NCBI GenBank assembly: GCA_021807105.1
Contig: JAKAPL010000003.1
Location: forward strand, 13,017 to 77,016
DNA: 64,000 nt
DNA from: Myxococcales bacterium
Lineage (GTDB): Bacteria; Myxococcota; Myxococcia; Myxococcales; JAKAPL01
Direction of reading: 5' to 3'
A program made the position numbers and the translations under genes. Below the pieces are notes generated by a model that had not been told where the DNA came from, searched no databases, and worked only from the letters and a program-made list of their open reading frames with translations. Positions 2 to 63,462 of the stretch are shown here, in pieces (position 1 is the first letter of the stretch; every line of letters starts with the position of its first letter).

Positions 2-694
2 GCGGCCTCCCCCTCGCCCCCAGGCTCGCCGCCTACGGGAACCGCCGCCCTCTGGGAGGTCCTCGGCCACTTCGACGAGTACCCGGCCGCTGTCCCCTAC
101 CAGGTCGCGGACCAGATGAAGGTCGGGAGCGCGACGCTCCGGATGGCCGGGTTCACGACGGCCGATTCGCCCGCCAAGGTCCTCGCCTTCTACCGAGCCG
201 AGTTCGTGCGCGAGAAGCTGATCCTGCCCCCTGGCCCCCCTCCGGGAGACATCCCGTACGAGGGGCTGACGGGCTTCGACCTCCACGCGAAGCTCCAGAA
301 GACGGTGATGGTCATGGACGGAGGGGGGGGCCCGACCCGGGTGATCCTCAGCGTCTCCCCCGAGGCCGGTCTCGACGAGGAGACGCTCACCAGCGAGTCC
401 AAGGTCCCCGCGGGGCTGCCCGTCTTCCCCAAGTCCTCGGACGTCTTCCGAACCGACGGGGAGGACGGCCCCCGCTGGAGCAGCACCATCAGCTACCAGG
501 CGAGCGGCAAGCCGGCCGAGGTCCTCGACTACATCCGCAAGGGCCTCTCGGAGAAGGGCTGGGCCCAGGCGCCGGCGGCCGACACGTTGCCCGGGCAGGG
601 GCTGCGCTACTTGAGGTCCGGCGAATCCGTCGACATCATGCTGCGGCCGCTCGACCTCGGCTCGACCGAGGTCACCTACCTCTACGTGCACTAG
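2..694 (+). CDS. hypothetical protein, 5' end possibly outside window
   Basis: ORF-track ORF 116..694. The same frame stays open back to base 2 with GC-rich third positions, so the start is either ATG 116 or upstream of the window. No family motif recognised. The stop TAG (692-694) is part of the CTAG end of mini-element A1. Confidence 0.5.
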   Translation, partial: AASPSPPGSPPTGTAALWEVLGHFDEYPAAVPYQVADQMKVGSATLRMAGFTTADSPAKVLAFYRAEFVREKLILPPGPPPGDIPYEGLTGFDLHAKLQKTVMVMDGGGGPTRVILSVSPEAGLDEETLTSESKVPAGLPVFPKSSDVFRTDGEDGPRWSSTISYQASGKPAEVLDYIRKGLSEKGWAQAPAADTLPGQGLRYLRSGESVDIMLRPLDLGSTEVTYLYVH

Positions 695-972
695 GAGGCT
701 GGTGGGAACCCGTCTTATTCACGGTCCGGCTGCTGCGGCGTCCGATCCCACGCCTCCCGAAGGGGGGGCTTGCCACCCCTACCACGACATGGGGGGGTGT
801 GCTCGCTCCTTCCTCCTGCGGCGTGCTTTACGCGACGCCTCGTCGGTCGTCGCTCTCGCTTGCCCTTCTCGGCTCGCGGTCTAAAAACGCCTCGCTACGC
901 CGTACCGTGAATCAGACGGGCTTAGGTCTCGGCGCTCTCGCGACGGCACCCATTTCACATCAAGCCTCCTAG
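691..972. mobile_element. CTAG-flanked palindromic mini-element, family A copy 1 (carries a nested family-B MITE)
   Basis: Left end is CTAG|GAGGCTGGTG and right end is CATCAAGCCTC|CTAG. The right-end region is homologous to the copy at 2370..2493 (TTTCACA(C/T)C(A)AGCCTCCTAG). The two CTAGs supply the TAG stops of the convergent genes 2..694 (+) and rsmB (-). Confidence 0.5.
709..920 (+). mobile_element. MITE-like element, family B copy 1 (212 bp)
   Basis: Terminal inverted repeats are CCCGTCTTATTCACGGTCCGGC (left) and GCCGTACCGTGAATCAGACGGG (right). The body is homologous to 31144..31916 and, in reverse orientation, to 63220..63462. It sits inside element A1. Confidence 0.65.
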
Positions 973-2345
973 CGCTTCGCGAGCACCGCGGCGTAGAAGC
1001 CGTCGGTGCCGTGACGCTGCGGCCAGAGCCGCAGGCCGAGCTCCGACCGGAGCATCGCGGGGCCGCCCGCGAGCGGCTCGTCGAGCGCCGCCGAGAGGTC
1101 GGGGCCCAGGACCTCGCGCCAGGGAGCGACCGCGAAGTCACCCGACAGCGCGAGGAAGCGCGCCACGACCTCCTCGTTCTCCTCCCAGAGCAGGCTGCAG
1201 GTCGCGTACACGAGCCGGCCGCCCGGCCGGACGAGGGGCGAGAGCCGCTGCAGGATTGCGAGCTGCCGCGCCGCGTGATCGGCGATAGCCTCCTCGGACA
1301 GCCGCCGCCGCGCGTCCGGGTTTCGCCGCAGCGATCCCGTCCCGGAGCACGGCGCGTCGACGAGCAGGAGGTCGGCCTTCCCCGAGAGCCGATCGATCGC
1401 CGGGGGCAGCGGTCCCCCCTCGGCGATGGCGACGCAGCGGATGTTGTCGGCGCCCGCTCGCGCCGCCCTCGGACGCAGCATCGCCAGCCGGTCCTCGCGG
1501 GCGTCGAGCGCCCAGATCTCGCCCCGATTTCCCATCGCCGCCGCGAGCGCGAGGCTCTTTCCTCCCGCGCCCGCGCAGCCGTCGACGACCCGTCGCCCCG
1601 GTGGAACCCCGCAGGCCAGCGCGATGAGCTGGCTCCCCTCGTCCTGGACCTCGAAGAGTCCATCGTGGAAGGCCCGCAGCCCGAAGGCGTTGACGTGCGC
1701 GGGCAGGACGAGACCCCAGGGGGAGTAACGGCACGCCGCCGGCCGCGCGCCTTCGGCGGCCAGCCGTTCTCCGAGCTCCCCGGCCGCCGTCCGCAAGAGG
1801 TTCGCGCGAACCGTGAGCGGCGCCCTCCGGTTGAGGGCGCTCGCCAGCGCGGCGGTCTCCGCGGCGCCGAGCCGCCCGCCGAAGCGCGTCACGAACCAGC
1901 CGGGGAGGGACGTCTCGACGGCGATCCGTTCCCAGGGATCCTCCTCGCCTTCCAGGACGCTCCCGCGGAGCGCCGCCGCCCGCTCCGCCACCCGCCCTGG
2001 CAGCTCGCCCGGCGGAGGCGCGTCCCCGGCGAACGCCGCCGCGACGGCGAGCCGAAGCACGTCGAGGCGGGTCGCGGAGAGCGTCGCCCGTGGGACGCGC
2101 AATTCGCCCAGGGCGCGGTCGAGCACGGTCTCGACCAGCCGATCCTGCCGCAGGAGGCGGTAAACGGCCTCCGCGACCGCGCGCCGCTCGGCGCTCCAGA
2201 GTCCCCGCTCCCGGCGCAGCACGCGAGAGAGGGTCCGGTCGGCGAGCTGCCCCTCGGCGCGAATCGCCGCCAGGACCTCGAGGATGACCGCGAGGATCCG
2301 GTCGGGGCGAACGCGGCTCCGGAGACCCTGGGCTTTCACTCCCAT
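969..2345 (-). CDS. rsmB: 16S rRNA (cytosine-C5) methyltransferase, RsmB/Sun (NOL1/NOP2/Sun) family
   Basis: 458 aa. SAM-binding motif DGCAGAGGKS, catalytic motifs DAPCSGTGSLRRNPD and YATCSL, and an N-terminal NusB-like region. Confidence 0.85.
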   Translation of the reverse strand: MGVKAQGLRSRVRPDRILAVILEVLAAIRAEGQLADRTLSRVLRRERGLWSAERRAVAEAVYRLLRQDRLVETVLDRALGELRVPRATLSATRLDVLRLAVAAAFAGDAPPPGELPGRVAERAAALRGSVLEGEEDPWERIAVETSLPGWFVTRFGGRLGAAETAALASALNRRAPLTVRANLLRTAAGELGERLAAEGARPAACRYSPWGLVLPAHVNAFGLRAFHDGLFEVQDEGSQLIALACGVPPGRRVVDGCAGAGGKSLALAAAMGNRGEIWALDAREDRLAMLRPRAARAGADNIRCVAIAEGGPLPPAIDRLSGKADLLLVDAPCSGTGSLRRNPDARRRLSEEAIADHAARQLAILQRLSPLVRPGGRLVYATCSLLWEENEEVVARFLALSGDFAVAPWREVLGPDLSAALDEPLAGGPAMLRSELGLRLWPQRHGTDGFYAAVLAKR

Positions 2346-2369
2346 GGCCGCTGCCTTACCACACGGCTC

Positions 2370-2493
2370 CTAGGAGGCTGCTGTTTTTCGCGGGGATGCT
2401 TCACGCCAATCCCCGAAGCCCAGTGCCGGCGGGACGCCGGCGTTCCGAGGATACCCTCACGGTCGTCGCGCACGTTTCACACCAGCCTCCTAG
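2370..2493. mobile_element. CTAG-flanked palindromic mini-element, family A copy 2 (124 bp)
   Basis: CTAG|GAGGCTGCTG...CACCAGCCTC|CTAG, i.e. 10-bp terminal inverted repeats (9/10 complementary) with CTAG on both sides. It lies in the rsmB / 2868 divergent intergenic region. Confidence 0.5.
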
Positions 2494-2867: not shown

Positions 2868-4076
2868 ATGAGGTCGTGGCCTCTCCTCACCGGGATCGCC
2901 TTGCTGGGCGCCGTCGCGACGGCGACGCCCGCGTCGGCGCAGGTGACCAACGCCTACCTGGACGGCAACGCGACCTCCCCCATCTACTCGGGGTACGTCT
3001 GGCCGTTCCACTACGCCGGCTGCGAGGCCGGCTACAGCAACTCGCAGAGCGCCAACAGCGCGGCCGCCCAATCGGACGAGTTTACCCTGTCCGTCCCGTA
3101 CACGGAGGGGATGAGCTACCAGGCGTTCTGGAGCACGGATTCCTCCTGCGTGGCCCCCGACGGCGGCGCGAACAACCTCCCGATGCAGCTCAACCTGATC
3201 GGGGTCGGCGGAACGCCCACCGAGGACGTGCAGGTCAACCTCGAGTCGGTGCTGGCGACGGCCACCGGCGCCACGGATCCCTGCGACAGCCAACCGCCGC
3301 TCTCGGGCACCGGCTACGTGTGCGTCAACGAGAACGGGTACGGCGTGGGGGGCTATGGTTACGGCTATGGGTATGGGGGTTACGGCACGACTTCCATGCC
3401 CTTCTACGTGACGGTCGAGTACGACATGGCCGCGCCCCAGGCTCCTGGGGGCTTCGCCGTCACGCCGGCGGACGGCGAGCTCGACGTGTCGTGGACCTTC
3501 CCTTACGCCCAGGGGGGAGGCGACAACGCCGACCACTTCGTGGTGTTCGCCCAGGAGGATCCGGCCACCAGCCCGGACGTGTTCGGCACCTGCCAGCCCG
3601 CAGGGGGCGTCGCGGACGGCGGCATCGCCGACGGCGGCCCGGCCGGCGCGGCCATCGCGGACGGCGGCGCCGGGGATGGCGGCGCCGCCGGCGGGGGCGC
3701 CACGGACGGCGGCGTCGCGAACGGGGGCTCGTACGTCTCCTCGACCGCGAGCTCCGATCCCACCCACTGGGCCATCCAGCAGACGGTGCAGAACCCCGGC
3801 AACGCGAACCTCTCGTATCCCATGACCGGACTCACGAACGGCGTCTGTTACGACGTCGCGGTCATCGCCTTCTACAGCGACGGCACGCAGGGAAACCCGA
3901 CGGCCACCGTCACCGCGGCCCCCATCGAGATCCTCGACTACTGGCGGCTCTACCGGAAGTCCGGCGGCCAGGACCCGGGCGGGCTCCACTGTCAGGCCGC
4001 CGGAGGTGGGCTCGCGCCCCTCGCGTTCGTGCTCGCGGCCCTCGTCTTCTTCCGCAGCCGCCGCCGGAGGACATAG
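2868..4076 (+). CDS. secreted FN3-like protein with a MYXO-CTERM-type C-terminal sorting tail
   Basis: 402 aa. Signal peptide MRSWPLLTGIALLGAVATATPASA|Q, a GYGYGYGYGGYG stretch, and a Gly/Asp/Ala-rich low-complexity region. The C-terminus HCQAAGGGLAPLAFVLAALVFFRSRRRRT (Cys, Gly-rich, TM helix, Arg cluster) matches the MYXO-CTERM pattern. Confidence 0.75.
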   Translation: MRSWPLLTGIALLGAVATATPASAQVTNAYLDGNATSPIYSGYVWPFHYAGCEAGYSNSQSANSAAAQSDEFTLSVPYTEGMSYQAFWSTDSSCVAPDGGANNLPMQLNLIGVGGTPTEDVQVNLESVLATATGATDPCDSQPPLSGTGYVCVNENGYGVGGYGYGYGYGGYGTTSMPFYVTVEYDMAAPQAPGGFAVTPADGELDVSWTFPYAQGGGDNADHFVVFAQEDPATSPDVFGTCQPAGGVADGGIADGGPAGAAIADGGAGDGGAAGGGATDGGVANGGSYVSSTASSDPTHWAIQQTVQNPGNANLSYPMTGLTNGVCYDVAVIAFYSDGTQGNPTATVTAAPIEILDYWRLYRKSGGQDPGGLHCQAAGGGLAPLAFVLAALVFFRSRRRRT

Positions 4077-4934
4077 GTGCGCCGCGCCGGCTTGGCCGCG
4101 CTCCTGGTGGGACTCTTGTCCGCCCGGATCGCGCTCGCGGACGATCCGCGCCCGAGTGTCTGGAGCATCGAGGTCCGGGGGAGCACGGTCTTCTACCCCG
4201 ACGCCGACGCCGCGGCGACGCCGGGAAATTACGAGTCGTTCGTCGGCCTCGACGGGGCGACGCACTCCGGCCCTCCTTTCTATGACGTCTACGGTTCGAA
4301 GCATCGTCTCCTGACGGAGCTCGAGCTCGACCGCGACGTCTGGAAAGGCTTCGGATCGGTCTCCGTCGGCCTGACCGGCGGTTACGCCGAGTTCTACGGC
4401 CACGGCATGAAGCTGTGCGCGGGGTACGACGCCTCGGTCGGCTGCCTCGCCCAGGCCGCGGGCGGCGCCGGTTACCTCCAGCAGGTCGCCGTCAACTCGA
4501 GCTTCCACCTCGTCCCCGTGCGGCTCCTCGGCACCTACCGGTTCGACGTGCTGGTCCCGCGCGGCATCCCGCTCGTGCCGTTCATCCGCGGCGGACTCGA
4601 CTGGGTGCTCTACTGGAACGCCGAGCAGAGCGGGCAGATCTCGTTCGTCGCGAACGACGCCGGCGTCAAGGGGCTGGGATTGACGACCGGGTACGAGGGC
4701 GCGATCGGACTGGAGCTGCTGTTGGACTGGTTGGACGCCGAGATCGGCAACGACGCCTGGCGCGACCTGGGAATCGCGCACACCTACCTGCTCGTCGAGT
4801 ACGTGGACCAGATCATCCAGAACGGCCCCGGCGACGTCGTCCACGCCATCCGGACCCTCGGAGCGACACCCGCCGCCCCGGCGATCGACCTCTCGGCGCG
4901 CTACTTCGATTTTGGCCTCGGCTTCCAGTTCTGA
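4077..4934 (+). CDS. outer-membrane beta-barrel protein, translationally coupled to the MYXO-CTERM protein
   Basis: 285 aa. GTG start directly follows the upstream TAG (TAGGTG), with GGAGG 7 nt upstream. Signal peptide ends ...ARIALA|DD. Alternating beta-strand pattern and the terminal FGLGFQF are typical of OMP C-termini. Confidence 0.7.
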   Translation: MRRAGLAALLVGLLSARIALADDPRPSVWSIEVRGSTVFYPDADAAATPGNYESFVGLDGATHSGPPFYDVYGSKHRLLTELELDRDVWKGFGSVSVGLTGGYAEFYGHGMKLCAGYDASVGCLAQAAGGAGYLQQVAVNSSFHLVPVRLLGTYRFDVLVPRGIPLVPFIRGGLDWVLYWNAEQSGQISFVANDAGVKGLGLTTGYEGAIGLELLLDWLDAEIGNDAWRDLGIAHTYLLVEYVDQIIQNGPGDVVHAIRTLGATPAAPAIDLSARYFDFGLGFQF

Positions 4935-5114
4935 CTTGGGGTTCGCCCTTTTCGCCGTCGCGAGGTCGAGGACGGGGCGGCGCCGCCGCCGCGACGCACA
5001 GGCGGTTTTCGTCGAAGACGTACTGAAGTACGTCGAGACGAAAACCGCCGAGCACCGAAGCGCCGGCCGCGCCGGACCGACCGCGAGTGGGCGGGAAAAG
5101 GGCGAAACCCAAGT
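4934..5114. repeat. 180-bp nested palindrome (long imperfect hairpin) at a convergent gene junction
   Basis: Outer arms are ACTTGGGGTTCGCCCTTTTC (4934-4953) and GAAAAGGGCGAAACCCAAGT (5095-5114). The inner 49-nt near-perfect palindrome is GGCGGTTTTCGTCGAAGACGTACTGAAGTACGTCGAGACGAAAACCGCC (5001-5049). Both strands translate to the same SSDLGFALF peptide in the ORF track. It starts at the last base of the TGA of gene 4077..4934. Confidence 0.7.
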
Positions 5115-7408: not shown

Positions 7409-8404
7409 TCAGCCGCAGCTCCCCCCGTTGCAGCTCTCCCCGGTCGGGCAGTCCATGTCGAAGGTGCAGGAGCCGCACTGCCCGGTCGAGTAGTCGCAGC
7501 CCGGGGCGTTCGCCGGGCAATCGGTGGGCTTCTGACACTGCACGCAGCGGCCCGCGACGCAGTACGGCGCGCCGGCGTCGGCGCAATCGGCCGGGACTTG
7601 GCAGACGACGCAGACGTTGTCCGGGTTGCAGTACTTTCCGATCCCGGCGTCCCGGCACTCCGCCGCCTCGACGCATTCGACGCAGATGCCGCTGTCGAGG
7701 TCGCAGTCCGGCGTCGCTCCCTGGCAGACCCCGGGGGTCGCACAGCTCTCTGCGCAGGCCCCGTTGGGGAACGTTGGATCGCAGATGAACCCACCAGCGC
7801 AGTCGCTCGACTGGCGGCAGCCGCAGACCCCGCTGGAGAGGCAGACCGGAGCATCACCGCCGCAACCGCCGTTGTTCGTGCAGGCGCACGAACCGTTGTT
7901 GCAGTTCTCGTTCAACGGGCATTCCAGGTCCCCCTGGCAGAAGCCGCAATGACCGCCGGAGCAGCCCGGGTTGTGGTAAGGGCAGTCCGACGGTCCCAGG
8001 CATTCCACGCAGGTATAGGTCATGGGGTCGCAGCGCCCGGCATGAGGCTTGCCAGCGCAGTCGGCGTCGGACAGACAATCGACGCAGGCGCCGGTCATCG
8101 CGTCGCAGACCTGCCCGACGCAGGTGACGCCGCCGTCGGCGCAGCTCGGCCCCCCCCCGCTCGATGTCGATCCGCTCCCCGATCCGCTCGTCGATCCCCC
8201 GCCTGACGCTCCGCTCGTACTCCCGGTCACCCCGCTGGTGCCGCCGCTGGAACTGCTGCTGCCGCCGGAACTACCGCCGCCCCCGCCGCCGCTCGTGCTG
8301 CTCAGGGCCGTCCCGGTCCACCCCCCGTCGCTGCGGGTGATGACCGCCTGACACCCGAGCAGGGCTAGCCCCATCATGGCAAAGAATCGGAGTGCTCGTG
8401 CCAT
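7409..8404 (-). CDS. Cys-rich repeat lipoprotein
   Basis: Start taken at MARALRFFAMMGLALLGC (lipobox LLGC). The ORF-track extension to 8575 is only an off-frame reading of the groEL GGM tail. It has a Ser/Gly linker and then ~8 repeats of the C-x2-C-x3-(D/S)-C-x6-8-C-x5-7-C type. Confidence 0.7.
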   Translation of the reverse strand: MARALRFFAMMGLALLGCQAVITRSDGGWTGTALSSTSGGGGGGSSGGSSSSSGGTSGVTGSTSGASGGGSTSGSGSGSTSSGGGPSCADGGVTCVGQVCDAMTGACVDCLSDADCAGKPHAGRCDPMTYTCVECLGPSDCPYHNPGCSGGHCGFCQGDLECPLNENCNNGSCACTNNGGCGGDAPVCLSSGVCGCRQSSDCAGGFICDPTFPNGACAESCATPGVCQGATPDCDLDSGICVECVEAAECRDAGIGKYCNPDNVCVVCQVPADCADAGAPYCVAGRCVQCQKPTDCPANAPGCDYSTGQCGSCTFDMDCPTGESCNGGSCG

Positions 8405-8428
8405 CGGCCCCGGCGAGCCTAGCAGAAC

Positions 8429-10440: not shown

Positions 10441-11177
10441 CTCATCCAACGCTGGAACGATGGGTCCTGCGGCTGGAAGGGCCGCTCATGCGGCTGCAAA
10501 CGTGGCTCATGCCGCATGAACCCGACTTCATCCCGGATGCGAAGCCGTTCATGGTCGATGAGATCGATCTCATCCGGCATGAATGTCGATTCATTCGCCA
10601 TGAATTCAGTTTCATCCGCCTTCCCTTGGCCTTCATGGGGCATGAGCTGGCTTTCATGCAGGAGGATCGGGCCTTCATCCCGGATGCGAAGCCGTTCATG
10701 GTCGATGAGATCGATCTCATCCGGCATGAATGTTGGTTCATTCGCCATGAATTCAGTTTCATCCGTCTTCCCTTGGCCTTCATGGGGCATGAGCTGGCTT
10801 TCATGCAGGAGGATCGGGACTTCATCCCGGATGCGAAGCCGTTCATGGTCGATGAGATCGATCTCATCCGGCATGAATGTCGATTCATCCCCCATGAATT
10901 CAGTTTCATCCGCCTTCCCTTGGCTTTCATGGAGCATGCGCTGACTTTCATGCAGGAGGATCGGGCCTTCATCGAGCATGAGCTGGCTTTCATGCGACAT
11001 GAGCTCGTCTTCGTGCGGGAGGAGCCTGTCATCATCGAGCATGACCTGGTCTTCATGCGGGAGGATCAGGCTTTCATGGGGCATGAGCTCGTCTTCATCC
11101 GGCATGAGCATTCCCTCCATGCCGCATGAGCGGCTCTCCATGCGGCAGGATCTCTGTTCATCCGGGATGGGCGCCAG
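10441..11177. repeat. array of ~35 phase-locked 21-bp units with an internal TCAT-N5/6-ATGA inverted repeat
   Basis: Units start at 10485+21k with no indel through 11177. Examples: TTCATGGGGCATGAGCTGGCT, TTCATTCGCCATGAATTCAGT, TTCATGCGACATGAGCTCGTC. Local GC is visibly lower than in the flanks. It lies between divergent groEL and hsp70. Confidence 0.85.
10526..10966. repeat. three tandem 147-bp higher-order repeats (7 x 21 bp each)
   Basis: Copies start at 10526, 10673 and 10820. They differ at only 4-5 positions from each other (about 97% identity). Confidence 0.9.
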
Positions 11178-16873: not shown

Positions 16874-16887
16874 TTAGGAGGCTGGTG
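16874..16887. other. solo end of mini-element family A embedded in the purM stop / purN start junction
   Basis: TTAGGAGGCTGGTG matches the A-element end TAGGAGGCTGGTG at 13/13 positions. On the minus strand it reads CCA GCC TCC TAA, the last three codons plus stop of purM. Confidence 0.45.
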
Positions 16888-28416: not shown

Positions 28417-31143
28417 ATGCGTGTCCATCGAATCCTTTTCCTCGTCGCGGGCGCCGGAGGAGGAATCCTCTCGGGTTGCTGCCCCCACCACGGCTCCGGC
28501 GGCTCGGGGACCATCGTCGGGGTCGACGGCGTCGGTAAGACCAGCGACCTCGACTTCGGCAGCGTCCTCGTCGGGCAGACCAAGACGCTCCAGCTCAAGC
28601 TCACCGACACGGGAGCGCAGGCCCTCGCCGTCTTGAACGTCGCGCTCTCCGGTCCGGACGCCCAGGACTTCAAGGTGCGCGGCAATCTGCCGCCCTCGAT
28701 CCAGCAGGACGCTACGGCCAGCGTCTCGGTGGTGTTCGCACCCTCCGCGGGCGGAGCCCGGACGGCGAACGTCACCATCCAGACCAACAGCCAGGAGACC
28801 CCCATGGTCACGGCCAAGCTCACCGGCGCGGGCATCGAGCTCGGCCTGTGCGCTCACCCCTCGACGCTGGACTTCGGCAACGTCCAAGTGCTCGGCACGC
28901 CGAGCGTCCAAGAGGTCGACCTCGGCAACTGCGGCCCGTCCCCGTTCTCCATCACGGCCGGTCCGGTCAAGGGGACGCAGGCCGGAGACTTCTCGCTGTC
29001 GGCGGAGACCTCGGCCACGCTGCCGCCGGGCGGGAAGCTCGTCGTATGGGTCAGCTACTCGCCGGCCGCCATCGGTCCCTCGTCGGCCTTCCTGCCCCTG
29101 ACCGTCAGCCTGACCGGCTGCACGAACTGCACGGCCCCATCGATCTCCCTCGCGGGCGTCGGCGTTGACGGAGCGCTCGTGTTCTCTCCGAGCCCGGTGA
29201 GCTTCCCCTCCGTCCCCGCGGGCACCACCTCGACCCAGAAGGTCCTGGTGAGCAACGTCGGCACCGAGCCGGTCACCATCGGGACCAACGACCTCGGCAC
29301 CCTGGGCGGGAACTCCGTCTTCACCCTGTCGGGCGTCCCTCAGCTTCCGGTGACGATTTCTCCCGGGGGGAACGTCCCGCTCTTCGTCGTCTACAGCCCA
29401 TCGAGTCAGGCCGGCGATCAGGACACGCTGGTCGCCTGGTGGTTCGTGAAGGATCCGAAGGTGTCCCCCCGGGAGGCGACGGATCTGCTCTCCGGCAATC
29501 AGGTCCTCGGACCGTGCAGCCTCCAGGTCGCGCCCGCCGCGCTGAACTTCGGCAACGTGAAGACGGCCACGCAGGCGACCGAGCAGGTCACCCTGACGAA
29601 CTCGGGCGGGACGGCCTGCAAGGTGTCGGGGATCACCCTCGACCCGGCGAGCGATCCGGACTTCGGCCTCGCCTCCGGGCAGGCGGTCGCGCTCGCCGTA
29701 CCCCCGGGCAGCAGTGCGAAGGTCGGCGTGACCTTCTCCTCCCCGCAGAACGCCAACGCCCCCCTCTTGCGCCGAGGCACGCTCGTCTTTACGACCGGCG
29801 ACCCACAGAACCCGAACGCCGCCGTACCTCTGTCCGCCTTCATCGACAAGGGCAGCGTCTACTCCGGCGGGTGGCCCAAGTGGCACCACGACAACGGCAA
29901 CACGGGCCAGACGGGCGCCGACACGTCCACCCTCAAGGGCACCGTCGGCTGGACGTTCAACGTCGGCAGCCCGACGGCTGGGAATGGCTGGCTCGGCGGG
30001 ACGTTCCTCGAGTCGCCGGTCATCGACGGGAGCGGCAACATCTACTTCCTGGAGATGGACGGCACCTACGTCGCGGTGAGCCCCGCGGGCCAGAAGCTCT
30101 GGTCGGTCGCGCTCTCGGATCCATCCCAGGACCCGCATCCCTGCACCCCCGCCATCCTCGCCGGTGGCAGCATGTACGTGAACTCAGGCTCCGAACAGAA
30201 CACCGATCCGAACCTGTACCTGATCTCCTCCTCCGGGAACATCCTCTACCAGACCACCTTCGGGGTGGAGGGGTTCTCCTCCACCCCCGGGCTCGGCAAC
30301 GACGGCGTCCTGTTCGAGGCGGACGACGACGGCATCCCGGGCAACGGTCCGGACAAGTTCGACATCATCGCCTTCCAGGCGCAAGCGAGCGGCCAGGTCA
30401 GCCAGATCGGGCAGTACCGGCTGCCCTTCTCGGTGCCCGGCGAGCGGCTCTCGGTCGCGATCGCCGACGACGACACGAGCTACTGGTGCAGCGGCGCCCA
30501 GTGCTTCGCGGTCTCGCCGCCGAAGAGCGGCTTCGCCCCGCTCCCGGCGTGGCCGGCGAGAGGCGTCACCCTCGCCAACACGGACCCGAACGCGCAGGAC
30601 AACGGCGACGGCGTGATCATCTCGGACCTCGCGGTCGATCTGTACGGGACGACGGGGTTCATTTACGCGTACGCGGGATGGGAAGACCTCGACCCGTCGA
30701 GCAACGACTACTCCGTCCAGGGCGTCCTCGTCGCCCTCGACCCCTCGAACGGCGCCCAGAAATGGACGATGCCGCTGCGGGCCGGCCCGCTGCCCTCGGG
30801 CTGGAACGTCCTGATGTCCGATTATGGGAACGCCCCGCCGGCGATCGGCAACGACGGGACGGTCTACGTCGGCAACGGCGACGGCCTGCACGCGGTGGAC
30901 GGGGCGACGGGCCAGCAGAAGTGGATCTTCAAGAGCGCCAACGTGAGCGACGCCCCGGCGGTCGGCGGCGACGGCACGGTCTTCTTCGGTTGCTCGGACG
31001 GCAACTTCTACGCCGTTGGAGCGGACGGCAGGCTCCGCTTCCAGATCCAGACGAAGGGGGCGATCAGCTCGTCCCCGGCGATTGCCACGGACGGCACGGT
31101 CGACTTCGTCTCCGACGACGGGAATCTCTACCACGTGAATTAA
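28417..31143 (+). CDS. large lipoprotein: four Ig-like (ASH / choice-of-anchor-D-like) domains plus a PQQ-type beta-propeller
   Basis: 908 aa. Lipobox ILSGC|C. Repeated LDFG(S/N)V.VG...V.L.N.G...L.I modules. The C-terminus has DGTVYVGNGDGLHAVDGATGQQKW and DGTVFFGCSDGNFYAVGADG propeller blades. Confidence 0.8.
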   Translation: MRVHRILFLVAGAGGGILSGCCPHHGSGGSGTIVGVDGVGKTSDLDFGSVLVGQTKTLQLKLTDTGAQALAVLNVALSGPDAQDFKVRGNLPPSIQQDATASVSVVFAPSAGGARTANVTIQTNSQETPMVTAKLTGAGIELGLCAHPSTLDFGNVQVLGTPSVQEVDLGNCGPSPFSITAGPVKGTQAGDFSLSAETSATLPPGGKLVVWVSYSPAAIGPSSAFLPLTVSLTGCTNCTAPSISLAGVGVDGALVFSPSPVSFPSVPAGTTSTQKVLVSNVGTEPVTIGTNDLGTLGGNSVFTLSGVPQLPVTISPGGNVPLFVVYSPSSQAGDQDTLVAWWFVKDPKVSPREATDLLSGNQVLGPCSLQVAPAALNFGNVKTATQATEQVTLTNSGGTACKVSGITLDPASDPDFGLASGQAVALAVPPGSSAKVGVTFSSPQNANAPLLRRGTLVFTTGDPQNPNAAVPLSAFIDKGSVYSGGWPKWHHDNGNTGQTGADTSTLKGTVGWTFNVGSPTAGNGWLGGTFLESPVIDGSGNIYFLEMDGTYVAVSPAGQKLWSVALSDPSQDPHPCTPAILAGGSMYVNSGSEQNTDPNLYLISSSGNILYQTTFGVEGFSSTPGLGNDGVLFEADDDGIPGNGPDKFDIIAFQAQASGQVSQIGQYRLPFSVPGERLSVAIADDDTSYWCSGAQCFAVSPPKSGFAPLPAWPARGVTLANTDPNAQDNGDGVIISDLAVDLYGTTGFIYAYAGWEDLDPSSNDYSVQGVLVALDPSNGAQKWTMPLRAGPLPSGWNVLMSDYGNAPPAIGNDGTVYVGNGDGLHAVDGATGQQKWIFKSANVSDAPAVGGDGTVFFGCSDGNFYAVGADGRLRFQIQTKGAISSSPAIATDGTVDFVSDDGNLYHVN

Positions 31144-31356
31144 CCCGTCTTATTCACGGTCCGGCTGCGGCGGCGTCCGATCCCGCAACGGTTCCGGTCC
31201 TCGCTCCGTCTGCGCTGGGGCGAGGAGCGAAGCTTTGGAGCTGCACCTTATCTCGCCGGCCGGCCGCGCCTCACACGGGGTGATCGCTTCTTACGGGCGG
31301 ATCAGGGCCGGGCTCGGTCCGGAGGTTCATTCCCACCGTCCGAGCGCTCCGCGGCC

Positions 31357-31566
31357 CCGTCCGCAGCCTCCGGGGCTCCGTCCGCAGCCTCCGGGGCTCC
31401 GTCCGCAGCCTCCAGGCTTCCGTCCGCAGCCTCCAGGCTTCCGTCCGCAGCCTCCGAGCTTCCGTCCGCAGCCTCCGGGCTTCCGTCCGCAGCTTCCGGG
31501 GCTCCGTCCGCAGCTTCCGGGCTTCCGTCCGCAGCCCCCGGGCTTCCGTCCGCTGGCGTGGGGCCT
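31357..31566. repeat. tandem array, 9-10 x 21 bp (CCGTCCGCAGCCTCCGGGCTT)
   Basis: Units start at 31357+21k and are exactly phased, with point variants only (CTCCGGGG / CTCCAGGC / CTTCCGGG). Confidence 0.9.
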
Positions 31567-31725
31567 TCGTCGATGGCCCCCAAGCCTCCGTCCGAGCCGC
31601 TGAAGCTTCCGTCGGGACCGGACGAGCCTCCGTCCGCGCCGGACGAAGCCTCGTCCACCGCGGACGGAGCGCTCCCGAGCGCGGACGAGGATCCGCCGCC
31701 GCGGGACGGGGCTCCGTCCGCGCCG

Positions 31726-31830
31726 GACGGAGGCCCCACGGCACGAGACGGAGGCCCCACGGCACGAGACGGAGGCCCCACGGCACGAGACGGAGGCCCG
31801 GCGGCACGAGACGGAGGCCCGGCGGCGGCG
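31726..31830. repeat. tandem array, 5 x 21 bp (GACGGAGGCCCCACGGCACGA)
   Basis: Units at 31726, 31747, 31768, 31789 and 31810. The first three are identical. Confidence 0.85.
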
Positions 31831-31917
31831 GCCGGTGCTCTCGCTTGCCCTTCTCGGCTCGCGGTCTAAGAACGCCTCGCTACGCCGTACCATGAATAAA
31901 CCGTGAATAAGACGGGC

Positions 31918-32613
31918 TCACGCCACGGCACGCGCGATGGCGAAGGCGGCCGCCGCGGCGAAGGAGCCGACGGCCGCGGTCTGGAGCGCTCCGCGGATAG
32001 GCCGCGAGCCGGTCAGGCGCGCCTTCACCCAGCCGAACGCGAGGAGCGCGAGGAGGGTGACGCCGATCGAGACGGGCAGTGCGGCACGGACGGAGCCGAG
32101 CACGGCGTAGGGCACGAGCGGCATCAGACCTCCGGCGACGTAGGCGGCGGCGATGATCGCGCCGCTCTCGAACGCGCGCCGCCCTTGCGGCCGTTCGAGC
32201 CCCAGCTCAAAGCGCATCATGAAGTCGACCCACCCCTCGCGGGTACGGCGGATGGCGGCGACAATCGGCGCGATCTCGTCCTCGGAGAGCCCGTAGGGGC
32301 GAAAGAGCTGCCGGACCTCCTCTTCCTCCATCTCCGGCTTCTCCCGCGTCTCGTCGATCTCCCGCCGCCGCTCGCGCTCGTAGTGTTCGGCGTCGGTGCG
32401 GGCCGCGAGGTACCCCCCGAGGCCCATCGCGATCGAGCCGGCCGCCACCTCGGCGAGCCCGGCGGTCAGTACGACGCCCGCCGAAGCGACGGCGCCCGAC
32501 AGGCCGGCGGCGAGGGCGAACGGGACGGTCAAACCGTCGGCCATGCCGATGACCACGTCGCGGACCGCGGCACTGCCCCGAAAGTGGCGCTCGACGTGCG
32601 GCGTCTGCGGCAT
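31918..32613 (-). CDS. VIT1/CCC1-family iron/manganese transporter
   Basis: 231 aa. VIGMADGLTVPFALAAGLSGA, a central acidic loop (EKPEMEEEE), and C-terminal TM helices. Confidence 0.75.
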   Translation of the reverse strand: MPQTPHVERHFRGSAAVRDVVIGMADGLTVPFALAAGLSGAVASAGVVLTAGLAEVAAGSIAMGLGGYLAARTDAEHYERERRREIDETREKPEMEEEEVRQLFRPYGLSEDEIAPIVAAIRRTREGWVDFMMRFELGLERPQGRRAFESGAIIAAAYVAGGLMPLVPYAVLGSVRAALPVSIGVTLLALLAFGWVKARLTGSRPIRGALQTAAVGSFAAAAAFAIARAVA

Positions 32614-36962: not shown

Positions 36963-37041
36963 AGCCGGTTAGAGCCCCCCGTCCGTCCCGCCGGTTCTTT
37001 CCCGTTGACGCGCTCGCCGGGGGGGCGTAGACCGCGCGCCC

Positions 37042-39324
37042 ATGGCCACCTCATTCGGCAAATGGAAGATACGCAAGGAAGACGCGCTCGACTACCACTC
37101 GCGGGGCCGGCGCGGCAAGATCGAGGTCGTCCCGACCAAGCCCTGCGCTACCGCGCGCGACCTCTCGCTCGCCTACACCCCAGGGGTCGCGGAGCCGTGC
37201 CTGGAGATCGCGAAGGACCCCGACCTCTCGTACAAGTACACCGCCCGCGGCAACCTGGTCGCGGTCATCTCGAACGGCACCGCGGTCCTCGGCCTCGGTG
37301 ACATCGGCCCGTTCGCGGGCAAGCCGGTGATGGAAGGAAAGGGGGTGCTCTTCAAGAAGTTCGCGGACATCGATGTCTTCGATATCGAGCTCTCCGCGCT
37401 CGACGTCGACGCTTTCTGCAAGACGGTAGAGGCGCTCGAGCCGACCTTCGGCGGCATCAACCTGGAGGACGTGAAGGCGCCGGAGTGCTTCGCCATCGAG
37501 GAGCGGCTGAAGCAATCGATGAAGATCCCGGTCTTCCACGACGATCAGCATGGCACGGCGATCATCAGCGGCGCGGCCCTGCTCAACGCGGTGGAGCTCG
37601 CGGGGAAGAAGCTCGACCGCATCCGGGTGGTCACGAGCGGCGCGGGGGCCTCGGCCATCGCGTGCACCTCCTTCTACCTGACCCTCGGAGTACGGCCGGA
37701 GAACGTCCTGATGGTCGACACGAAGGGCGTGATCTACGAGGGCCGGCGCGAGGGGATGAACCCGTACAAGCAGCGCTTCGCCCGGCCGACCAAGGCCCGA
37801 ACGCTCGCCCAGGCGGTCGAGGGCGCGGACGTGCTGCTCGGCTGCTCGGTCAAGGGGCTCATCACCCAGGACATGATCCGCTCGATGGCCCGCAACCCGA
37901 TCGTCTTCGCGCTGGCGAACCCCGACCCGGAGATCTCGTACGAGGAGGCTGTGGCCGCGCGCGACGACGTGATCATGGCGACCGGCCGTAGCGACAACCC
38001 GAACCAGGTGAACAACGTCCTCGGCTTCCCATTCATCTTCCGCGGCGCCCTCGATGTACGAGCGCGCGCGATCACGGAGGGGATGAAGCTCGCCGCCTCC
38101 CGCGCGCTCGCCGCCCTCGCGCACGAGGAGGTCCCCGATTCGGTCTCTCGCGCGTACGGCGGCAAACGGTTCTCGTTCGGCCGCGACTACGTGATTCCGA
38201 AGGCCTTCGACCCGCGCGTGCTCCTCTGGGTCGCCCCGGCGGTCGCCAAGGCGGCGATGGACGAAGGCGTCGCCCGCCAGACTCTCGACGTCGTGCAGTA
38301 CCGCGAAGCGCTGCAGAAGCGGGTCTCGCGCAGCTACGAGGTGATGCGGGTCGCGGCCGGCAAGGCGCGCAAGAGCATCAAGCGCATCGTGTTCCCCGAG
38401 GGCAACCACCCGCGCATCCTCCAGGCGGCGCGGGAGCTGGTCGAGGACGGCCTCTGCGCGCCGGTCTTGCTCGGCGACGCGGAGGCGATCCGGAAGACGA
38501 TCGAGGAGAACAAGATCGACTCCCTCTCGCAGGTCGAGATCCTCGATCCCCCGCGCGACCCGCGCTTCTCCGAGTACGTGGACACCTACTACAGGCTGCG
38601 CGGGCGTCACGGCGTCTCGCAGCGCGAGGCGCGCAAGGCGGTCCGCACCCGCAACGTGTTCGCCGCCCTCATGGTGCGGGCCGGCCACGCGGACGGCATG
38701 GTGACCGGACTCACGATGAGCTACCCGGAGGCGATCCACGCGCCGCTCCAGATCATCCGGGCGAGGCCCGGCGAGCGGGCGGGCGGCCTCTACCTGCTCG
38801 TCTTCAAGCAGGGTTTCAAGCTGCTCGCGGACTGCACGGTCAACGTCGACCCGACGGCGGAGGAGCTCGCGGAGATTGCCGGCCGGACGGCGGATGTGGC
38901 GCGCTACTTCGACCAGGTGCCCAGGGTCGCCATGCTGTCCCACTCGAACTTCGGCAGCTCGCGGGCGGCGAGCGCGGAGAAGGTCCGCCGGGCGGTCGAG
39001 ATCCTCAAGAGTCGGCGGCCGGACCTCGCGGTCGACGGCGAGATGCAGGTCGACCCGGCGGTGGTGCCGGAGATCCTGGCGGAGGACTTCCCGTTCTCGA
39101 CGCTCGGCGGCGAGGCGAACGTCCTCGTCTTCCCGAACCTCGACGCGGCGAACATCGCCTACAAGCTCCTCTGGCGGCTCGGCGGCGCCGAGGTCATCGG
39201 CCCGATCCTCATCGGCATGCAGAAGCCGGTGAATGTGCTCCAGGCCGGCGCCTCGGTCCGTGACGTGGTGAACCTGGCGACGATCACCGCACTGCGCGCG
39301 CAAGGAGAGGAGTTCGCGTTCTAG
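37042..39324 (+). CDS. maeB: NADP-dependent malic enzyme with C-terminal phosphotransacetylase-like domain
   Basis: 760 aa. [33 protein letters not shown], and a PTA-like C-terminal half. The TAG stop is the CTAG end of mini-element A3. Confidence 0.9.
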
Positions 39325-39391
39325 GAGGCTGGTGGGAAACGGCTGCCTGCTGCGAAAGCCGAACCCTTCGCTGCGACGGGCGGCCTCCTAG
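39321..39391. mobile_element. CTAG-flanked mini-element family A copy 3 (71 bp, right end degenerate)
   Basis: CTAG|GAGGCTGGTGGGAAAC...GGCGGCCTC|CTAG. The first 18 nt are identical to copy 1 (CTAGGAGGCTGGTGGGAA). Confidence 0.45.
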
Positions 39392-42445: not shown

Positions 42446-44935
42446 GTGCGTAAACTCTGCTTCCTCGTAGCAACGGCGATCGCGGCTGCCGGTCCGGCGT
42501 GCACCTGCTCTCCCCCCTCGCCGAATCTCCAGAACTGCAACGGGGCCATGGTCGATATCCTGACCAGTCTCACCGATTGCGGGAGCTGCGGCAACGCCTG
42601 CCTCTCCGTCCAGACGTGCCAGAACGGGACGTGTGTCCTGACGAGCGGGGCGGGCCCCGACGCCGGCCCGGCGACGGTCTGCCAGGCGTGCACGACCGGC
42701 GCCGACTGCGGCGGGGGAAACAACCTCTGCCTGACCGACGAGAACGGCTACGCCGGCTGCGGCCTCGACTGCGGCAGCGGCGAGCCCTGCCCGGCCGGCA
42801 CGACCTGCCAGACGGTCCACGAAGCGAACGGCAGCGCGGTGAAGAACTGCTTCCCGGCGTCGGGCGTCTGCAACGCCGGCGCCCAGTGTAAAGACGCCTG
42901 CACGTCCGGCGCGACGCAATGCTCTCCCGACGGGAGCGGCGTCGAGACCTGCGACCTCCAGGCGAACGGCTGCTACGGGTGGACTCCCTCCGCGGCCTGC
43001 GCGGTCGGCCAGTCGTGCAGCAACGGGCAATGTGGGAACGGGTGCACCGATGGATGCCTCACGTCGGGGGCGACCCGCTGCACGGCGGACTATTCGGGCG
43101 TCGAAACGTGTCAGACGCAAGCGAACGGCTGCCTTGGATGGAGCGCGGGCGTGGCCTGCGGCGCGGGCGAGACGTGCAGCGGCGGCTTTTGCTCGACCTC
43201 GTGCCCCTACGCCTGCATCCAGAACACCACGCAGTGCGCGGCGGACGGGAGCGGGGTCCAGACCTGCGTCGAACAGGCAAACGGCTGTTATGAGTGGAGC
43301 AGCGGCGTGGCCTGCGCGGCCGGCCAGTCGTGCAGCGGGGGGCAGTGCGTGACCGGCTGCACCAACGCCTGCACGGCGGCCACCACCCAGTGCGCGGCGG
43401 ACGGGAGCGGCGTCCAGACCTGCGGCCTCCAGGCGAGCGGCTGCTACGGGTGGAGCAGCGGCGTGGCCTGCGCGGCCGGCCAGTCGTGCAGCGGGGGGAA
43501 GTGCGTCGCCGGGTCCTCCGTTCCGAACGCGCCAGCCAGCGTCACCGCCGTCGCCGGCAACCAGCAGGCGACGGTAAGCTGGGCGGCGCCGAGCAAGGAC
43601 GGGGGCAGCGCGATCACGAGCTACACGGTGACCTCTTACCCCGGCGCGAAAACGGTGACCGTGAGCGCGCCCACCCTGTCCGCCACGGTCACCGGCCTCG
43701 TGAACGGCACCGCGTACCACTTCACGGTCTACGCGACCAACGCGAACGGCAACGGCCCTCCGGCATCTTCGAACACCGTCACGCCGACCTCCGCGTGCGC
43801 GGCGTCGGCCCCCGTGCTGACGGGCGGGCCTGGGCCGAGCTTCACTGCGAAGCTCTCCTGGACCGCCGATCCGTCCTGCACGACGTTCAACGTCTACTGG
43901 ACCACGACTCCCCCCGTCACGACCGGCAGCACCGCCGTCACCGGCGCGGCGAGCCCGTACACCCAGGTCTCGCTGACCCCGGACACGACCTATTCGTTCG
44001 CCGTCGCGGCGGTCGAGGGAGGAACACCGGACCAGCTTTCGAACGCGGTGACCTTCAAGACCCCGATCTCGTGCAGCCCGAGCGGCTGGTGCGTCTACGA
44101 CGCCGGGCTGCCGGGAGGCGCCTTCCCCCCGTCGGTCGGGGGGATCTGGGGTGACGCGGCGACCGACGTCTACTTCGGGAGCGGCGGCAACTTCTCCGGA
44201 GAGCTCGTGAACTGGAACGGTGACGCCTTCTCCGACGCGAACGACGCCGCAGCCGGGGCCATCTGGGGAACCGGGAGCGACATCTGGGCGCTCTGGGAAA
44301 CTACCGTCTATTCGCGAAGCGGGGGCGCCTGGTCCTCGCAGACACTGGGCAGCCAGTCGCTCAACGCCGTCTGGGGGAGCGGCAGCGACAACGTCTGGGT
44401 CGTGGGAAGCTCCGGTGTCGCCTACTACTGGGACGGCGCCGCCTGGAACTCCAGCGCGACCGGCTCGACGAGCGACTTCTTCGGCGTCTGGGGGACCGAC
44501 GCCACGGACCTCTGGGCGGTCGGCGGCGCCGCCGGACAATATGGACAGGGCGATGTCGCCGGCACGATCCTCTTTTACAACGGCACCGTCTGGACCGCGC
44601 AGGCGAGTGGAACGACGGAGATCCTGCGAGGCGTCTGGGGCGACGGCTCCGGGGACATCTGGGCGGTCGGTGACGCCGGGACGATTCTCCGGTGGACCAG
44701 CGGCTGGACCAGCGTTCCCGACAGCCTGACGACCGGAAATCTGTACGCGGTCTGGGGCACGAGCGCGGCCAACGTCTATGCCGTGGGCGATGGGGGAGCG
44801 ATCCTTCACTTCAACGGCAGCGGATGGGCCAAGGAGAACAGCGGCACCAGCGCCGGCCTGGGCGCCATCTGGGGGAGCGGTCCGGACGACATCTGGGTCG
44901 GCGGCAGCGGGACGATCTTGCGTTACCTGAAGTAG
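42446..44935 (+). CDS. giant lipoprotein: Cys-rich 52-aa repeats x4, two FN3 domains, seven-bladed Trp-rich propeller
   Basis: 829 aa. Lipobox AAAGPAC. Four repeats of the C..C...T.C..DGSGV.TC..QANGCY.WS.GVAC.AGQSCS.G.C type, FN3 (VTAVAGNQQATVSWAAPSKDGGSAITSYTV), and seven VWG(S/T)G..D(I/V)WAVG...G.IL..dG..W blades. Confidence 0.8.
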   Translation: MRKLCFLVATAIAAAGPACTCSPPSPNLQNCNGAMVDILTSLTDCGSCGNACLSVQTCQNGTCVLTSGAGPDAGPATVCQACTTGADCGGGNNLCLTDENGYAGCGLDCGSGEPCPAGTTCQTVHEANGSAVKNCFPASGVCNAGAQCKDACTSGATQCSPDGSGVETCDLQANGCYGWTPSAACAVGQSCSNGQCGNGCTDGCLTSGATRCTADYSGVETCQTQANGCLGWSAGVACGAGETCSGGFCSTSCPYACIQNTTQCAADGSGVQTCVEQANGCYEWSSGVACAAGQSCSGGQCVTGCTNACTAATTQCAADGSGVQTCGLQASGCYGWSSGVACAAGQSCSGGKCVAGSSVPNAPASVTAVAGNQQATVSWAAPSKDGGSAITSYTVTSYPGAKTVTVSAPTLSATVTGLVNGTAYHFTVYATNANGNGPPASSNTVTPTSACAASAPVLTGGPGPSFTAKLSWTADPSCTTFNVYWTTTPPVTTGSTAVTGAASPYTQVSLTPDTTYSFAVAAVEGGTPDQLSNAVTFKTPISCSPSGWCVYDAGLPGGAFPPSVGGIWGDAATDVYFGSGGNFSGELVNWNGDAFSDANDAAAGAIWGTGSDIWALWETTVYSRSGGAWSSQTLGSQSLNAVWGSGSDNVWVVGSSGVAYYWDGAAWNSSATGSTSDFFGVWGTDATDLWAVGGAAGQYGQGDVAGTILFYNGTVWTAQASGTTEILRGVWGDGSGDIWAVGDAGTILRWTSGWTSVPDSLTTGNLYAVWGTSAANVYAVGDGGAILHFNGSGWAKENSGTSAGLGAIWGSGPDDIWVGGSGTILRYLK

Positions 44936-58346: not shown

Positions 58347-59729
58347 ATGGCCTCGATCAATCCCCAGATCTTTCGTGAGTACGACATCCGTGGCCTCGTC
58401 GACCGCGACCTGACCGAGGACGCCGTGCGGCTCATCGGCCGCGGCCTCGGGACGATGGTGCGCCGCGCGAACCCCGGTAAGCCGGCGAGCGTCGCCCTCG
58501 GGCGCGACGCACGGGAATCGTCGGTTCGCTTCCGCGTGGCCATGACCGAGGGGCTGAACGCGAGCGGCGTGGACGTGGTCGACGTCGGCTTGATCCCGAC
58601 GCCGCTTTGTTATTTCGCGGCCAACACCTTGCCGGTGGACGGCCTCGCCATGATCACCGGATCGCACAACCCGCCCGAATACAACGGTATCAAGGTGGGG
58701 GTGGGCAGGACGACCCTCCACGGCGACGAGATCCGCGAGCTGCGCGCCCGGATCGAGCGCGAAGACTTCGAGCGGGGGGCGGGCGGCCGGCGGGAAGAGG
58801 ACATCGTCGGCCCGTACCAGGCTTTCGTACGCGCGAACCTCCGCCTCGGCCCGCGCCGCCCGGAGGTCGTGATCGACGCGGGTAACGGCGTGGGTGGGAT
58901 CGCCGCCCTCCCGCTCTTCACGTCGCTCGGCTTCCCCGTCCACGGTCTCTTCCTCGAGCCGGATGGCCGCTTCCCGAATCATCACCCGGATCCGACGATC
59001 GTCGCGAACATGGAAGACCTCCGCCGCGAGGTGCTCGCGCGCCACGCGGCCGTGGGCCTCGCCTACGACGGCGACGCCGACCGCCTCGGGGTCGTCGACG
59101 ACGCGGGGAACATCCTGTGGGGCGACCAGATCCTCATCCTCCTCTCCCGCAAGATCCTCGAGGAGGTCCCCGGCGCGTCGATCATCGGCGAGGTGAAGTG
59201 CTCGATGACCCTCTACGAGGACATTGCCCGGCACGGCGGCAAGCCGATCATGTGGAAGGCGGGCCACTCGCTCATCAAGGCGAAGATGAAGGAGACGGGC
59301 GCCGCCCTCGCCGGCGAGATGAGCGGCCACATCTTCTTCGCGAACCGCTGGTTCGGCTTCGACGACGGCATTTACGCTTCCGCGCGGTTGCTGGAGATCC
59401 TGACCCGTGAAAAGCGGCCGCTCTCCCGGCTGCTCTCCGACGTGCCGAAGACGTTCATCTCGCCCGAGATCCGGATCGACTGCCCGGAGGAGAAGAAGTT
59501 CCAGGTGGTCGAAGAGGTGAGGAACCGATTCGCGCGTGGGCCAAACCCGATCGTCGAGGTGGACGGCGTGCGGGTGACCTTCCCTGACGGCTGGGGGCTC
59601 GTCCGGGCGTCGAACACGCAGGCGCTCCTCGTGCTCCGCTTCGAAGCGCGCACCGCGCCGCGGATGGACGAGATCCGGCGCCAGGTCGAGAACGAAGTTC
59701 ATGATGCGATGAAGCGGCTAGGCGCGTAA
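58347..59729 (+). CDS. phosphomannomutase/phosphoglucomutase
   Basis: Start at MASINPQIFREYDIRG with SD GGAGGG. Active-site TGSHNPPEYNGIK, plus DGDADR and GEMSGH. Confidence 0.9.
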   Translation: MASINPQIFREYDIRGLVDRDLTEDAVRLIGRGLGTMVRRANPGKPASVALGRDARESSVRFRVAMTEGLNASGVDVVDVGLIPTPLCYFAANTLPVDGLAMITGSHNPPEYNGIKVGVGRTTLHGDEIRELRARIEREDFERGAGGRREEDIVGPYQAFVRANLRLGPRRPEVVIDAGNGVGGIAALPLFTSLGFPVHGLFLEPDGRFPNHHPDPTIVANMEDLRREVLARHAAVGLAYDGDADRLGVVDDAGNILWGDQILILLSRKILEEVPGASIIGEVKCSMTLYEDIARHGGKPIMWKAGHSLIKAKMKETGAALAGEMSGHIFFANRWFGFDDGIYASARLLEILTREKRPLSRLLSDVPKTFISPEIRIDCPEEKKFQVVEEVRNRFARGPNPIVEVDGVRVTFPDGWGLVRASNTQALLVLRFEARTAPRMDEIRRQVENEVHDAMKRLGA

Positions 59730-63219: not shown

Positions 63220-63462
63220 CCCGTCTTATTCACGGTACGGCGTAGCGAGGCGTTCGAGACCGCAGCCGAGAAGGGCAAGCGAGAGCGACGACCGACGAGG
63301 CGTCGCGTAAAGCACCTCCCCCCAAGTCGTTTGGAGGGTGGCAAGCCCCCCGCGAGGAGGTACGGAGCGAGCACCCCCCCATGTCGTTGTAGGGGTGGCA
63401 AGCCCCCCCTTCGGGAGGCGCGGGATCGGACGCCGCAGCAGCCGGACCGTGAATAAGACGGG
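63220..63462 (-). mobile_element. MITE-like element family B copy 3 (243 bp, inverted orientation)
   Basis: It is the reverse complement of copy 1 with both TIRs intact (CCCGTCTTATTCACGGTACGGC ... GGACCGTGAATAAGACGGG). It has an internal ~31-bp duplication of the GGGGGCTTGCCACCC segment. Confidence 0.65.

Follow-up and report, generated by a model that had tools for sequence, protein, structure and literature searches.

Three short CTAG-bounded segments in a 64,000-nucleotide stretch of a Myxococcales metagenome-assembled genome (MAG; assembly GCA_021807105.1, contig JAKAPL010000003.1, positions 13,017 to 77,016; hereafter the window) are very probably old, non-autonomous derivatives, or MITEs (miniature transposable elements with inverted repeats), of an insertion sequence of the IS1182 family, and they touch stop codons by way of their CTAG target. 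They are decayed, new representatives of an element type that is already known. The copies, their parts and the genes beside them are as follows.

691-972 (282 bp): copy 1 as a whole, with CTAG at both ends.
691-694: left CTAG of copy 1 (target-site duplication); its TAG, 692-694, is the stop of gene X.
695-708, plus strand: left terminal inverted repeat of copy 1, GAGGCTGGTGGGAA.
709-920, plus strand: family B repeat nested within copy 1, foreign to the CTAG-type element.
921-968, plus strand: right part of copy 1, with a degenerate right inverted repeat, TTTCACATCAAGCCTC, at 953-968.
969-972: right CTAG of copy 1; read on the minus strand, its CTA (969-971) gives the TAG stop of rsmB.
2370-2493, plus strand: copy 2 (124 bp), CTAG-GAGGCTGCTGTTTTT ... 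TTTCACACCAGCCTC-CTAG.
39321-39391, plus strand: copy 3 (71 bp), CTAG-GAGGCTGGTGGGAAACGGCTGC ... GGCGGCCTC-CTAG.
2-694, plus strand: gene X, an open reading frame (ORF) of at least 230 codons with a third-position GC content (GC3) of 0.94 and no Pfam match.
969-2345, minus strand: rsmB, of the 16S rRNA m5C methyltransferase family, 458 amino acids (aa).
37009-39324, plus strand: a maeB-type malic enzyme with a PTA domain, 771 codons, with its TAG stop at 39322-39324.

All three copies start CTAG-GAGGCTG and finish CCTC-CTAG, at the coordinates where an initial annotation of this sequence had placed them. Read from the outside inward, the six ends are CTAGGAGGCTGGTGGGAAC (copy 1 left), CTAGGAGGCTGGTGGGAAA (copy 3 left), CTAGGAGGCTGGTGTGAAA (copy 2 right), CTAGGAGGCTTGATGTGAAA (copy 1 right), CTAGGAGGCTGCTGTTTTT (copy 2 left) and CTAGGAGGCCGCCCGTCG (copy 3 right). 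With at most one mismatch, CTAGGAGGCTG occurs 9 times in the window against 0.78 expected, a count reached in 0 of 100 shuffles, and 6 of the 9 matches are the six element ends. The annotation had also reported 18 identical terminal nucleotides in copies 1 and 3, and the left ends of both indeed share CTAGGAGGCTGGTGGGAA, CTAG included; the right inverted repeat of copy 3 is degenerate. Copy 1 had been taken for a single element, and while its CTAG-bounded palindromic ends are genuine, 709-920 belongs to another repeat family, so that the CTAG-type element there comes to about 70 bp (691-708 plus 921-972), close in size to the 71 bp of copy 3 and next to the 124 bp of copy 2. The interiors of the three copies that the 64-kb window contains fail to align, the common part being the ends and a few subterminal bases, and no conserved ORF was found within them. 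The divergent spacer upstream of rsmB contains copy 2, and 52 bp separate the right end of copy 3 from the gene that follows.

A full-length insertion sequence with the same terminal inverted repeats, which the annotation had envisaged, does exist. Elements of 1844-1878 bp with the same 18-mer tip occur in Solirubrobacterales, Acidimicrobiaceae, another Actinomycetota MAG and Chloroflexia, with a transposase gene behind the tip, flanking sequences that differ from site to site, and CTAG on both sides in all nine copies whose right end was located. These elements start CTAGGAGGCTGGTGTGAA; the right end of copy 2 is identical to this 18-mer, and on the left copies 1 and 3 agree with it in 17 of 18 positions, having G in place of T at position 15. 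Actinomycetota, Chloroflexota and Myxococcota have an IS1182 terminal sequence in common. Searching with the transposase protein returned a very large family, with more than 7,900 clusters at E<=1e-80.

The annotation had linked the segments to IS5-group elements. The description as non-autonomous relics with inverted repeats and CTAG on both sides stands, but the family does not. The 536-aa protein encoded by one full-length element (L074) has the Pfam domains DDE_Tnp_1_6, DDE_Tnp_1 and DUF772 and scores 280.7 bits on the NCBIfam model NF033551, 'IS1182 family transposase' (cut-off 270), whereas on the IS5-family models NF033581 and NF033578 it scores 58 bits (cut-off 140) and 42 bits (cut-off 275). 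Because it passes the IS1182 cut-off and falls far below both others, the parent is, judged by its transposase, IS1182-type and not IS5 proper. At 404-2247 of its Solirubrobacteraceae contig, the same element interrupts an ORF that resembles a group II intron reverse transcriptase; it is inserted there at a CTAG, directly behind the codons for ...FLGYTFRP.

Annotated relatives came from tblastn searches of plasmids. ISMgi3, an IS1182-family element on plasmid pMSPYR101 of Mycolicibacterium gilvum, reads CTAG-GAGACTGCTGAATTA ... TAATTCAGCAGTCTC-CTAG, and the left end of copy 2 resembles its end. Removing ISMgi3 and one CTAG in silico restores a continuous tyrosine-recombinase catalytic region (...HALRHTFGTAMAEAGVDLAVMQALLGHAHIDTTARYIH...), which directly demonstrates insertion at CTAG with CTAG regenerated on both sides. 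An element on a Rhodococcus plasmid (L098) reads CTAG-ATGGCTGGTGTTTTTCG ... CACCAGCCAT-CTAG and is followed by a second copy with which it has one CTAG in common. The tips of these elements (CTAG-GAGACTGCTG... in ISMgi3, CTAG-ATGGCTGGTGTTTTTCG... in Rhodococcus) compare with CTAG-GAGGCTG(G/C)TG... in the window, with CTAG on both sides in all; they differ in being autonomous 1.8-kb elements with a transposase, which the window copies lack. Four-base-pair direct repeats are also on record for ISPse1 of the IS1182 family (PMC3281130, Table 2).

We found the same ends on short elements in other genomes. An exact scan with CTAGGAGGCTGGTGKGAA, covering one genome per species, matched at least 86 loci, and about half of the matches listed lie in the Polyangiaceae bacterium MAG SMAG_U8720. 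There the motif is the left end of a near-uniform element of about 158 bp, present at no fewer than 44 sites, with a right end ...GTTTGAAAAACACCAGCCTC-CTAG and variants that include internal deletions of 72-147 bp and forms of about 380 bp. CTAG stands at both ends of 24 of the 27 paired Polyangiaceae copies and in 30 of 33 pairings across all MAGs listed. Such a uniform, multi-copy, CTAG-flanked element is the signature of a MITE family. Two Acidimicrobiia MAGs have a 169-bp MITE of their own with the same tip, and the first 25 nt of a 185-bp copy in a Kofleriaceae MAG (L037) equal the left end of copy 3 save for one base. The further copies that the annotation had anticipated were thus found, at high number, in the MAGs of other Myxococcota; that count concerns these relatives and not the remaining genome of the window organism.

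SMAG_U8720 holds a second repeat family that ends ...CGCCCAA(G/C)TCGAG-N-CTAG (L002, L007, L031, L034, L052, L054, L070, L081 and L083). Behind the CTAG of this family lies unique DNA in some copies and the 158-bp MITE in others, which indicates that different elements reuse the same CTAGs and that each insertion makes a new one.

The junction between gene X and rsmB bears on the origin of copy 1. Among named sources, Myxococcales MAGs give the best matches to RsmB. The closest non-self RsmB proteins are 63-65% identical to that of the window organism, and in the three relatives that encode them a gene X orthologue (59-70% identical) converges on rsmB, overlapping it by 7 nt (TCAGTGA) with zero spacer. 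The orthologue ends in ...TEVTY(I/V)YVH before its stop, as gene X does. With no spacer in the relatives, the 282 bp between the two stops of the window are very probably inserted DNA, and two nested repeats make up the whole of it. Removal of the element and one CTAG, as in the annotation, gives gtgcaCTAGcgctt, where the genes would overlap by 4 nt in the manner of the relatives. The locus thereby offers a concrete case of overlapping convergent genes split by 282 bp of nested transposon DNA with neither gene harmed. For copy 3, the maeB gene of the Polyangiaceae MAG (L043) was tried as a comparison and proved uninformative, its stop context being GTAG and its neighbouring gene a different one.

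Two independent short-read assemblies, SRR13206618 and SRR13170410 (L001 and L094), contain the same 1495-bp contig, equivalent to window positions 933-2427 and ending inside copies 1 and 2. Ends at these positions fit elements that are repeated elsewhere in the genome and break the assembly, so the elements account for such contig breaks.

We next consider why the elements lie at stop codons. At 70.5% GC, the window has 13 CTAG sites where a Markov model based on trinucleotide content expects about 55, which bears out the rarity noted in the annotation, and 6 of the 13 bound the three copies. ORF analysis likewise agrees with the annotation that three of these six are stops, those of gene X, rsmB and maeB; the element CTAGs at 2370, 2490 and 39388 are not stops of credible genes. 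Among the seven unoccupied CTAGs, three (52046, 54725 and 63989) and probably a fourth (42406) end long high-GC3 ORFs, those at 8365 and 8419 fall in a spacer, and the one at 59718, three codons short of a stop, is the only one inside a coding sequence. Given that long ORFs cover at least 73% of the window, CTAG is nearly confined to gene ends and spacers. The association with stop codons is a by-product of CTAG specificity and of this distribution, to which the purging of gene-damaging insertions may add.

We propose that the parent, with termini GAGGCTGGTG(T/G)GAA..., would insert at the palindrome CTAG and leave a CTAG on each side. Where the CTAG contains a stop codon, the left gene would keep one intact stop and a convergent gene on the right another; since either strand of CTAG contains TAG and the target is restored on each flank, neither neighbour loses its stop. 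Insertion would be neutral for both proteins and would create or lengthen the spacer between them, so that a palindromic target with a stop on both strands would make insertion at gene ends harmless. With CTAG depleted at 70% GC and surviving mainly at gene ends and in spacers, a CTAG-specific element would come to lie beside stops that it does not recognise as such. At 691-972 it would have entered the junction of convergent genes that overlap in relatives, and the unrelated miniature element of family B would have landed inside copy 1, presumably afterwards. As the window encodes no transposase, movement would have depended on one supplied from elsewhere in the genome. Their diverged interiors and imperfect inverted repeats suggest that the copies are now inactive.

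Several observations weigh against descent from an IS1182 element. The window copies are alike at their ends only, and the right end of copy 3 matches over just 9-10 nt. A tblastn search found no IS1182 transposase, either in the window or among the Myxococcota loci retrieved. The evidence has its largest gap at the empty sites: the annotation looked to orthologous sites with a single CTAG, and while the relatives do lack the spacer at the gene X/rsmB junction, they have TCAGTGA with TGA stops there instead of CTAG, so that none is an empty site in the literal sense. An exact reconstruction was obtained for the family member ISMgi3 only. At strain level no empty site turned up, as contigs of 99.8% identical DNA (L092-L094) carry the same insertions, and a scan of JGI metagenomes with RsmB returned only relatives at 39% identity or less. 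Finally, a palindromic target does not reveal the length of the duplication, which may be 4 bp (CTAG) or 2 bp (TA), and the imperfect Polyangiaceae flanks fit a shorter duplication slightly better: four of five are off at the outermost base (CTAC, CTAA, CTAT, and a left TTAG at L034:568) and one inside (CTGG).

This last point raises the question of IS630/Tc1-mariner-type MITEs with a TA duplication and a preference for CTAG. IS630 duplicates TA within CTAG, the flanks are formally compatible with C-TA-(GGAGG...CCTCC)-TA-G, and four of the five imperfect flanks differ only at the outermost base; every full-length element found with these termini (GGAGGCTGGTG), however, encodes an IS1182-family DDE transposase with DUF772, and none encodes an IS630-type protein, which makes this origin highly unlikely. 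The annotation had itself raised a different alternative, that TAG-GAGG-CTG-GTG is a selected termination/re-initiation module made of a stop, a Shine-Dalgarno sequence and a GTG start. GGAGG followed by GTG is present, directly behind the stops at 691 and 39321. But in three phyla this 18-mer forms the end of IS1182 elements that carry a transposase, the motif comes as an inverted pair, three of the six ends follow no gene, GGAGG and GTG are only 3 nt apart, and the sole ORF that starts there (702-884) runs into the unrelated nested repeat, with nothing conserved between copies. We reject the module, whose probability we regard as negligible.

Beyond recognising CTAG, the elements could actively seek out stops or the 3' ends of genes, where they would have a safe haven. 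Three of the six window ends are stops, repeat families B and D of the window (described below) are also flush with stops, and in the 65% GC Polyangiaceae MAG 15 of 54 MITE ends (28%) lie at stops of long ORFs, compared with 52 of 293 free CTAGs (18%) in the same loci (odds ratio 1.8). That enrichment is not significant (Fisher p=0.09), survival bias would produce it too as insertions inside genes are purged, and many copies lie away from stops, in other repeats or in genes such as the intron reverse transcriptase (L074) and the recombinase interrupted by ISMgi3. We consider such targeting distinctly unlikely, and of the annotation's statement that the element targets stop codons without destroying them, the second half holds while the target itself is CTAG. 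Compatible with an IS1182 origin, though in our judgement unlikely, is a co-option of the relics in which selection maintains their long inverted-repeat hairpins as structures that stabilise 3' ends or terminate transcription between convergent genes. All copies fold into hairpins with a terminal stem (z -1.9 to -6.7), which may affect transcripts, and copy 1 lies exactly between two convergent genes; on the other hand, stems follow automatically from inverted repeats and the interiors are not conserved between copies. No intrinsic terminator with a U-tract was found at the elements, the only match being a weak one of 5 pairs at 2364-2380, and no Rfam family reached the gathering threshold in the whole window.

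With descent from an IS1182 element as the favoured account, the nearest known counterpart is MITEPye1 of Paracoccus yeei, which is described (PMC11578231) as 159 bp long, intergenic, with 18-bp inverted repeats like those of the IS1182-family ISPye18 and 4-bp direct repeats. The likeness lies in a short non-coding element with IS1182-like inverted repeats and a long hairpin, and its size matches that of the Polyangiaceae MITE of about 158 bp; the differences are the host phylum, apparently the sequence, and the far more decayed state of the window copies, which vary in length (71-124 bp plus the nested composite). MITEPsy1 of Pseudomonas syringae, related to ISPsy2 of the IS5 family, inserts at CTAG or YTAA and duplicates 4 nt (PMC3189936). 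MITEPsy1 is a CTAG-inserting MITE and shows the IS5-group behaviour that the annotation had in mind, but it has the inverted repeat GGAAGGTCTGAAAAAGCC and an IS5-family parent, and the parent found here falls below the IS5 cut-offs. Literature searches covering IS1182 elements at CTAG, myxobacterial MITEs and stop codons at duplicated CTAGs found no paper on the present element, nor on the link with stops.

Other bacterial MITEs at gene ends, Correia and RUP among them, are small palindromic non-autonomous spacer elements able to alter transcript ends. Correia and RUP belong to other transposase families and have other targets, and their location can be explained without a palindromic target that contains a stop.

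We tentatively extend these results to a broader proposal, which as a whole we hold to be doubtful. Transposons with palindromic targets that contain a stop (CTAG for IS1182-type elements, TNA for family B) may regularly supply high-GC bacteria with new intergenic DNA. They would enter at the shared or abutting stops of tightly packed or overlapping convergent genes, regenerate a stop for each and part the genes without coding cost. Each insertion would double the CTAG sites, and new spacers would draw more insertions; CTAG specificity itself could then be a safe-haven adaptation in such genomes. For annotation, several otherwise anonymous spacers of the myxobacterial MAG are accounted for by the relics together with two further repeat families.

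The first of these, family B, has the ends CCCGTCTTATTCACGG / CCGTGAATCAGACGGG, and a repeat search found further copies at 31144-31916 and 63220-63462, both without CTAG-type ends. The family is MITE-like, with another copy at 2969-3226 of the sister-strain contig L092, and its flanks resemble a 3-bp TNA duplication: TGA stands on both sides at 63220-63462 and in L092, the flanks are TTA/TCA at 31144-31916, and the copy inside 691-972 has no clear duplication. The copy at 31144-31916 occupies the entire gap between the TAA stop (31141-31143) of a 1001-aa gene and the stop of a VIT-family gene, TCA (TGA on the other strand) at 31918-31920. It contains about 12-17 tandem 21-nt units (CCGTCCGCAGCCTCCGGGGCT-like) at 31272-31636, followed by more short tandem repeats to about 31820. 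Rearranged family B ends at the contig edges of L092 and L093 are probably assembly artefacts.

A third palindromic element, D, at 4935-5113, has the ends CTTGGGGTTCGCCC / GGGCGAAACCCAAG and begins right behind the TGA stop (4932-4934) of the gene at 4077-4934. Where the window has unrelated sequence beyond the right end of D, the sister strain (L092) has a directly abutting B element; the difference is a genuine polymorphism or else comes from a chimeric contig.

The sequence TTAGGAGGCTGGTG, at 16874-16887, agrees with the element tip in 13 of 14 positions, and no partner end was found for it. Its minus strand contains the final codons of purM (..APAS) and the TAA stop, with the GTG start of purN 1 base further on. 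It may be what is left of a lone element end, now giving purM its C-terminus and stop, or the match may be a coincidence. The two CTAGs in the spacer at 8365-8422, 54 bp apart, surround a short sequence with a weak internal palindrome and, given the rarity of CTAG, might be the remnant of another CTAG-targeting element. The window also contains two tandem arrays of four copies each: one at 10507-11107, within the lowest-GC part of the window (63%), with a 147-nt period and 62-95% identity to the reference copy, and one at 42894-43520 with a period of about 156 nt and 61-78% identity to its reference copy.

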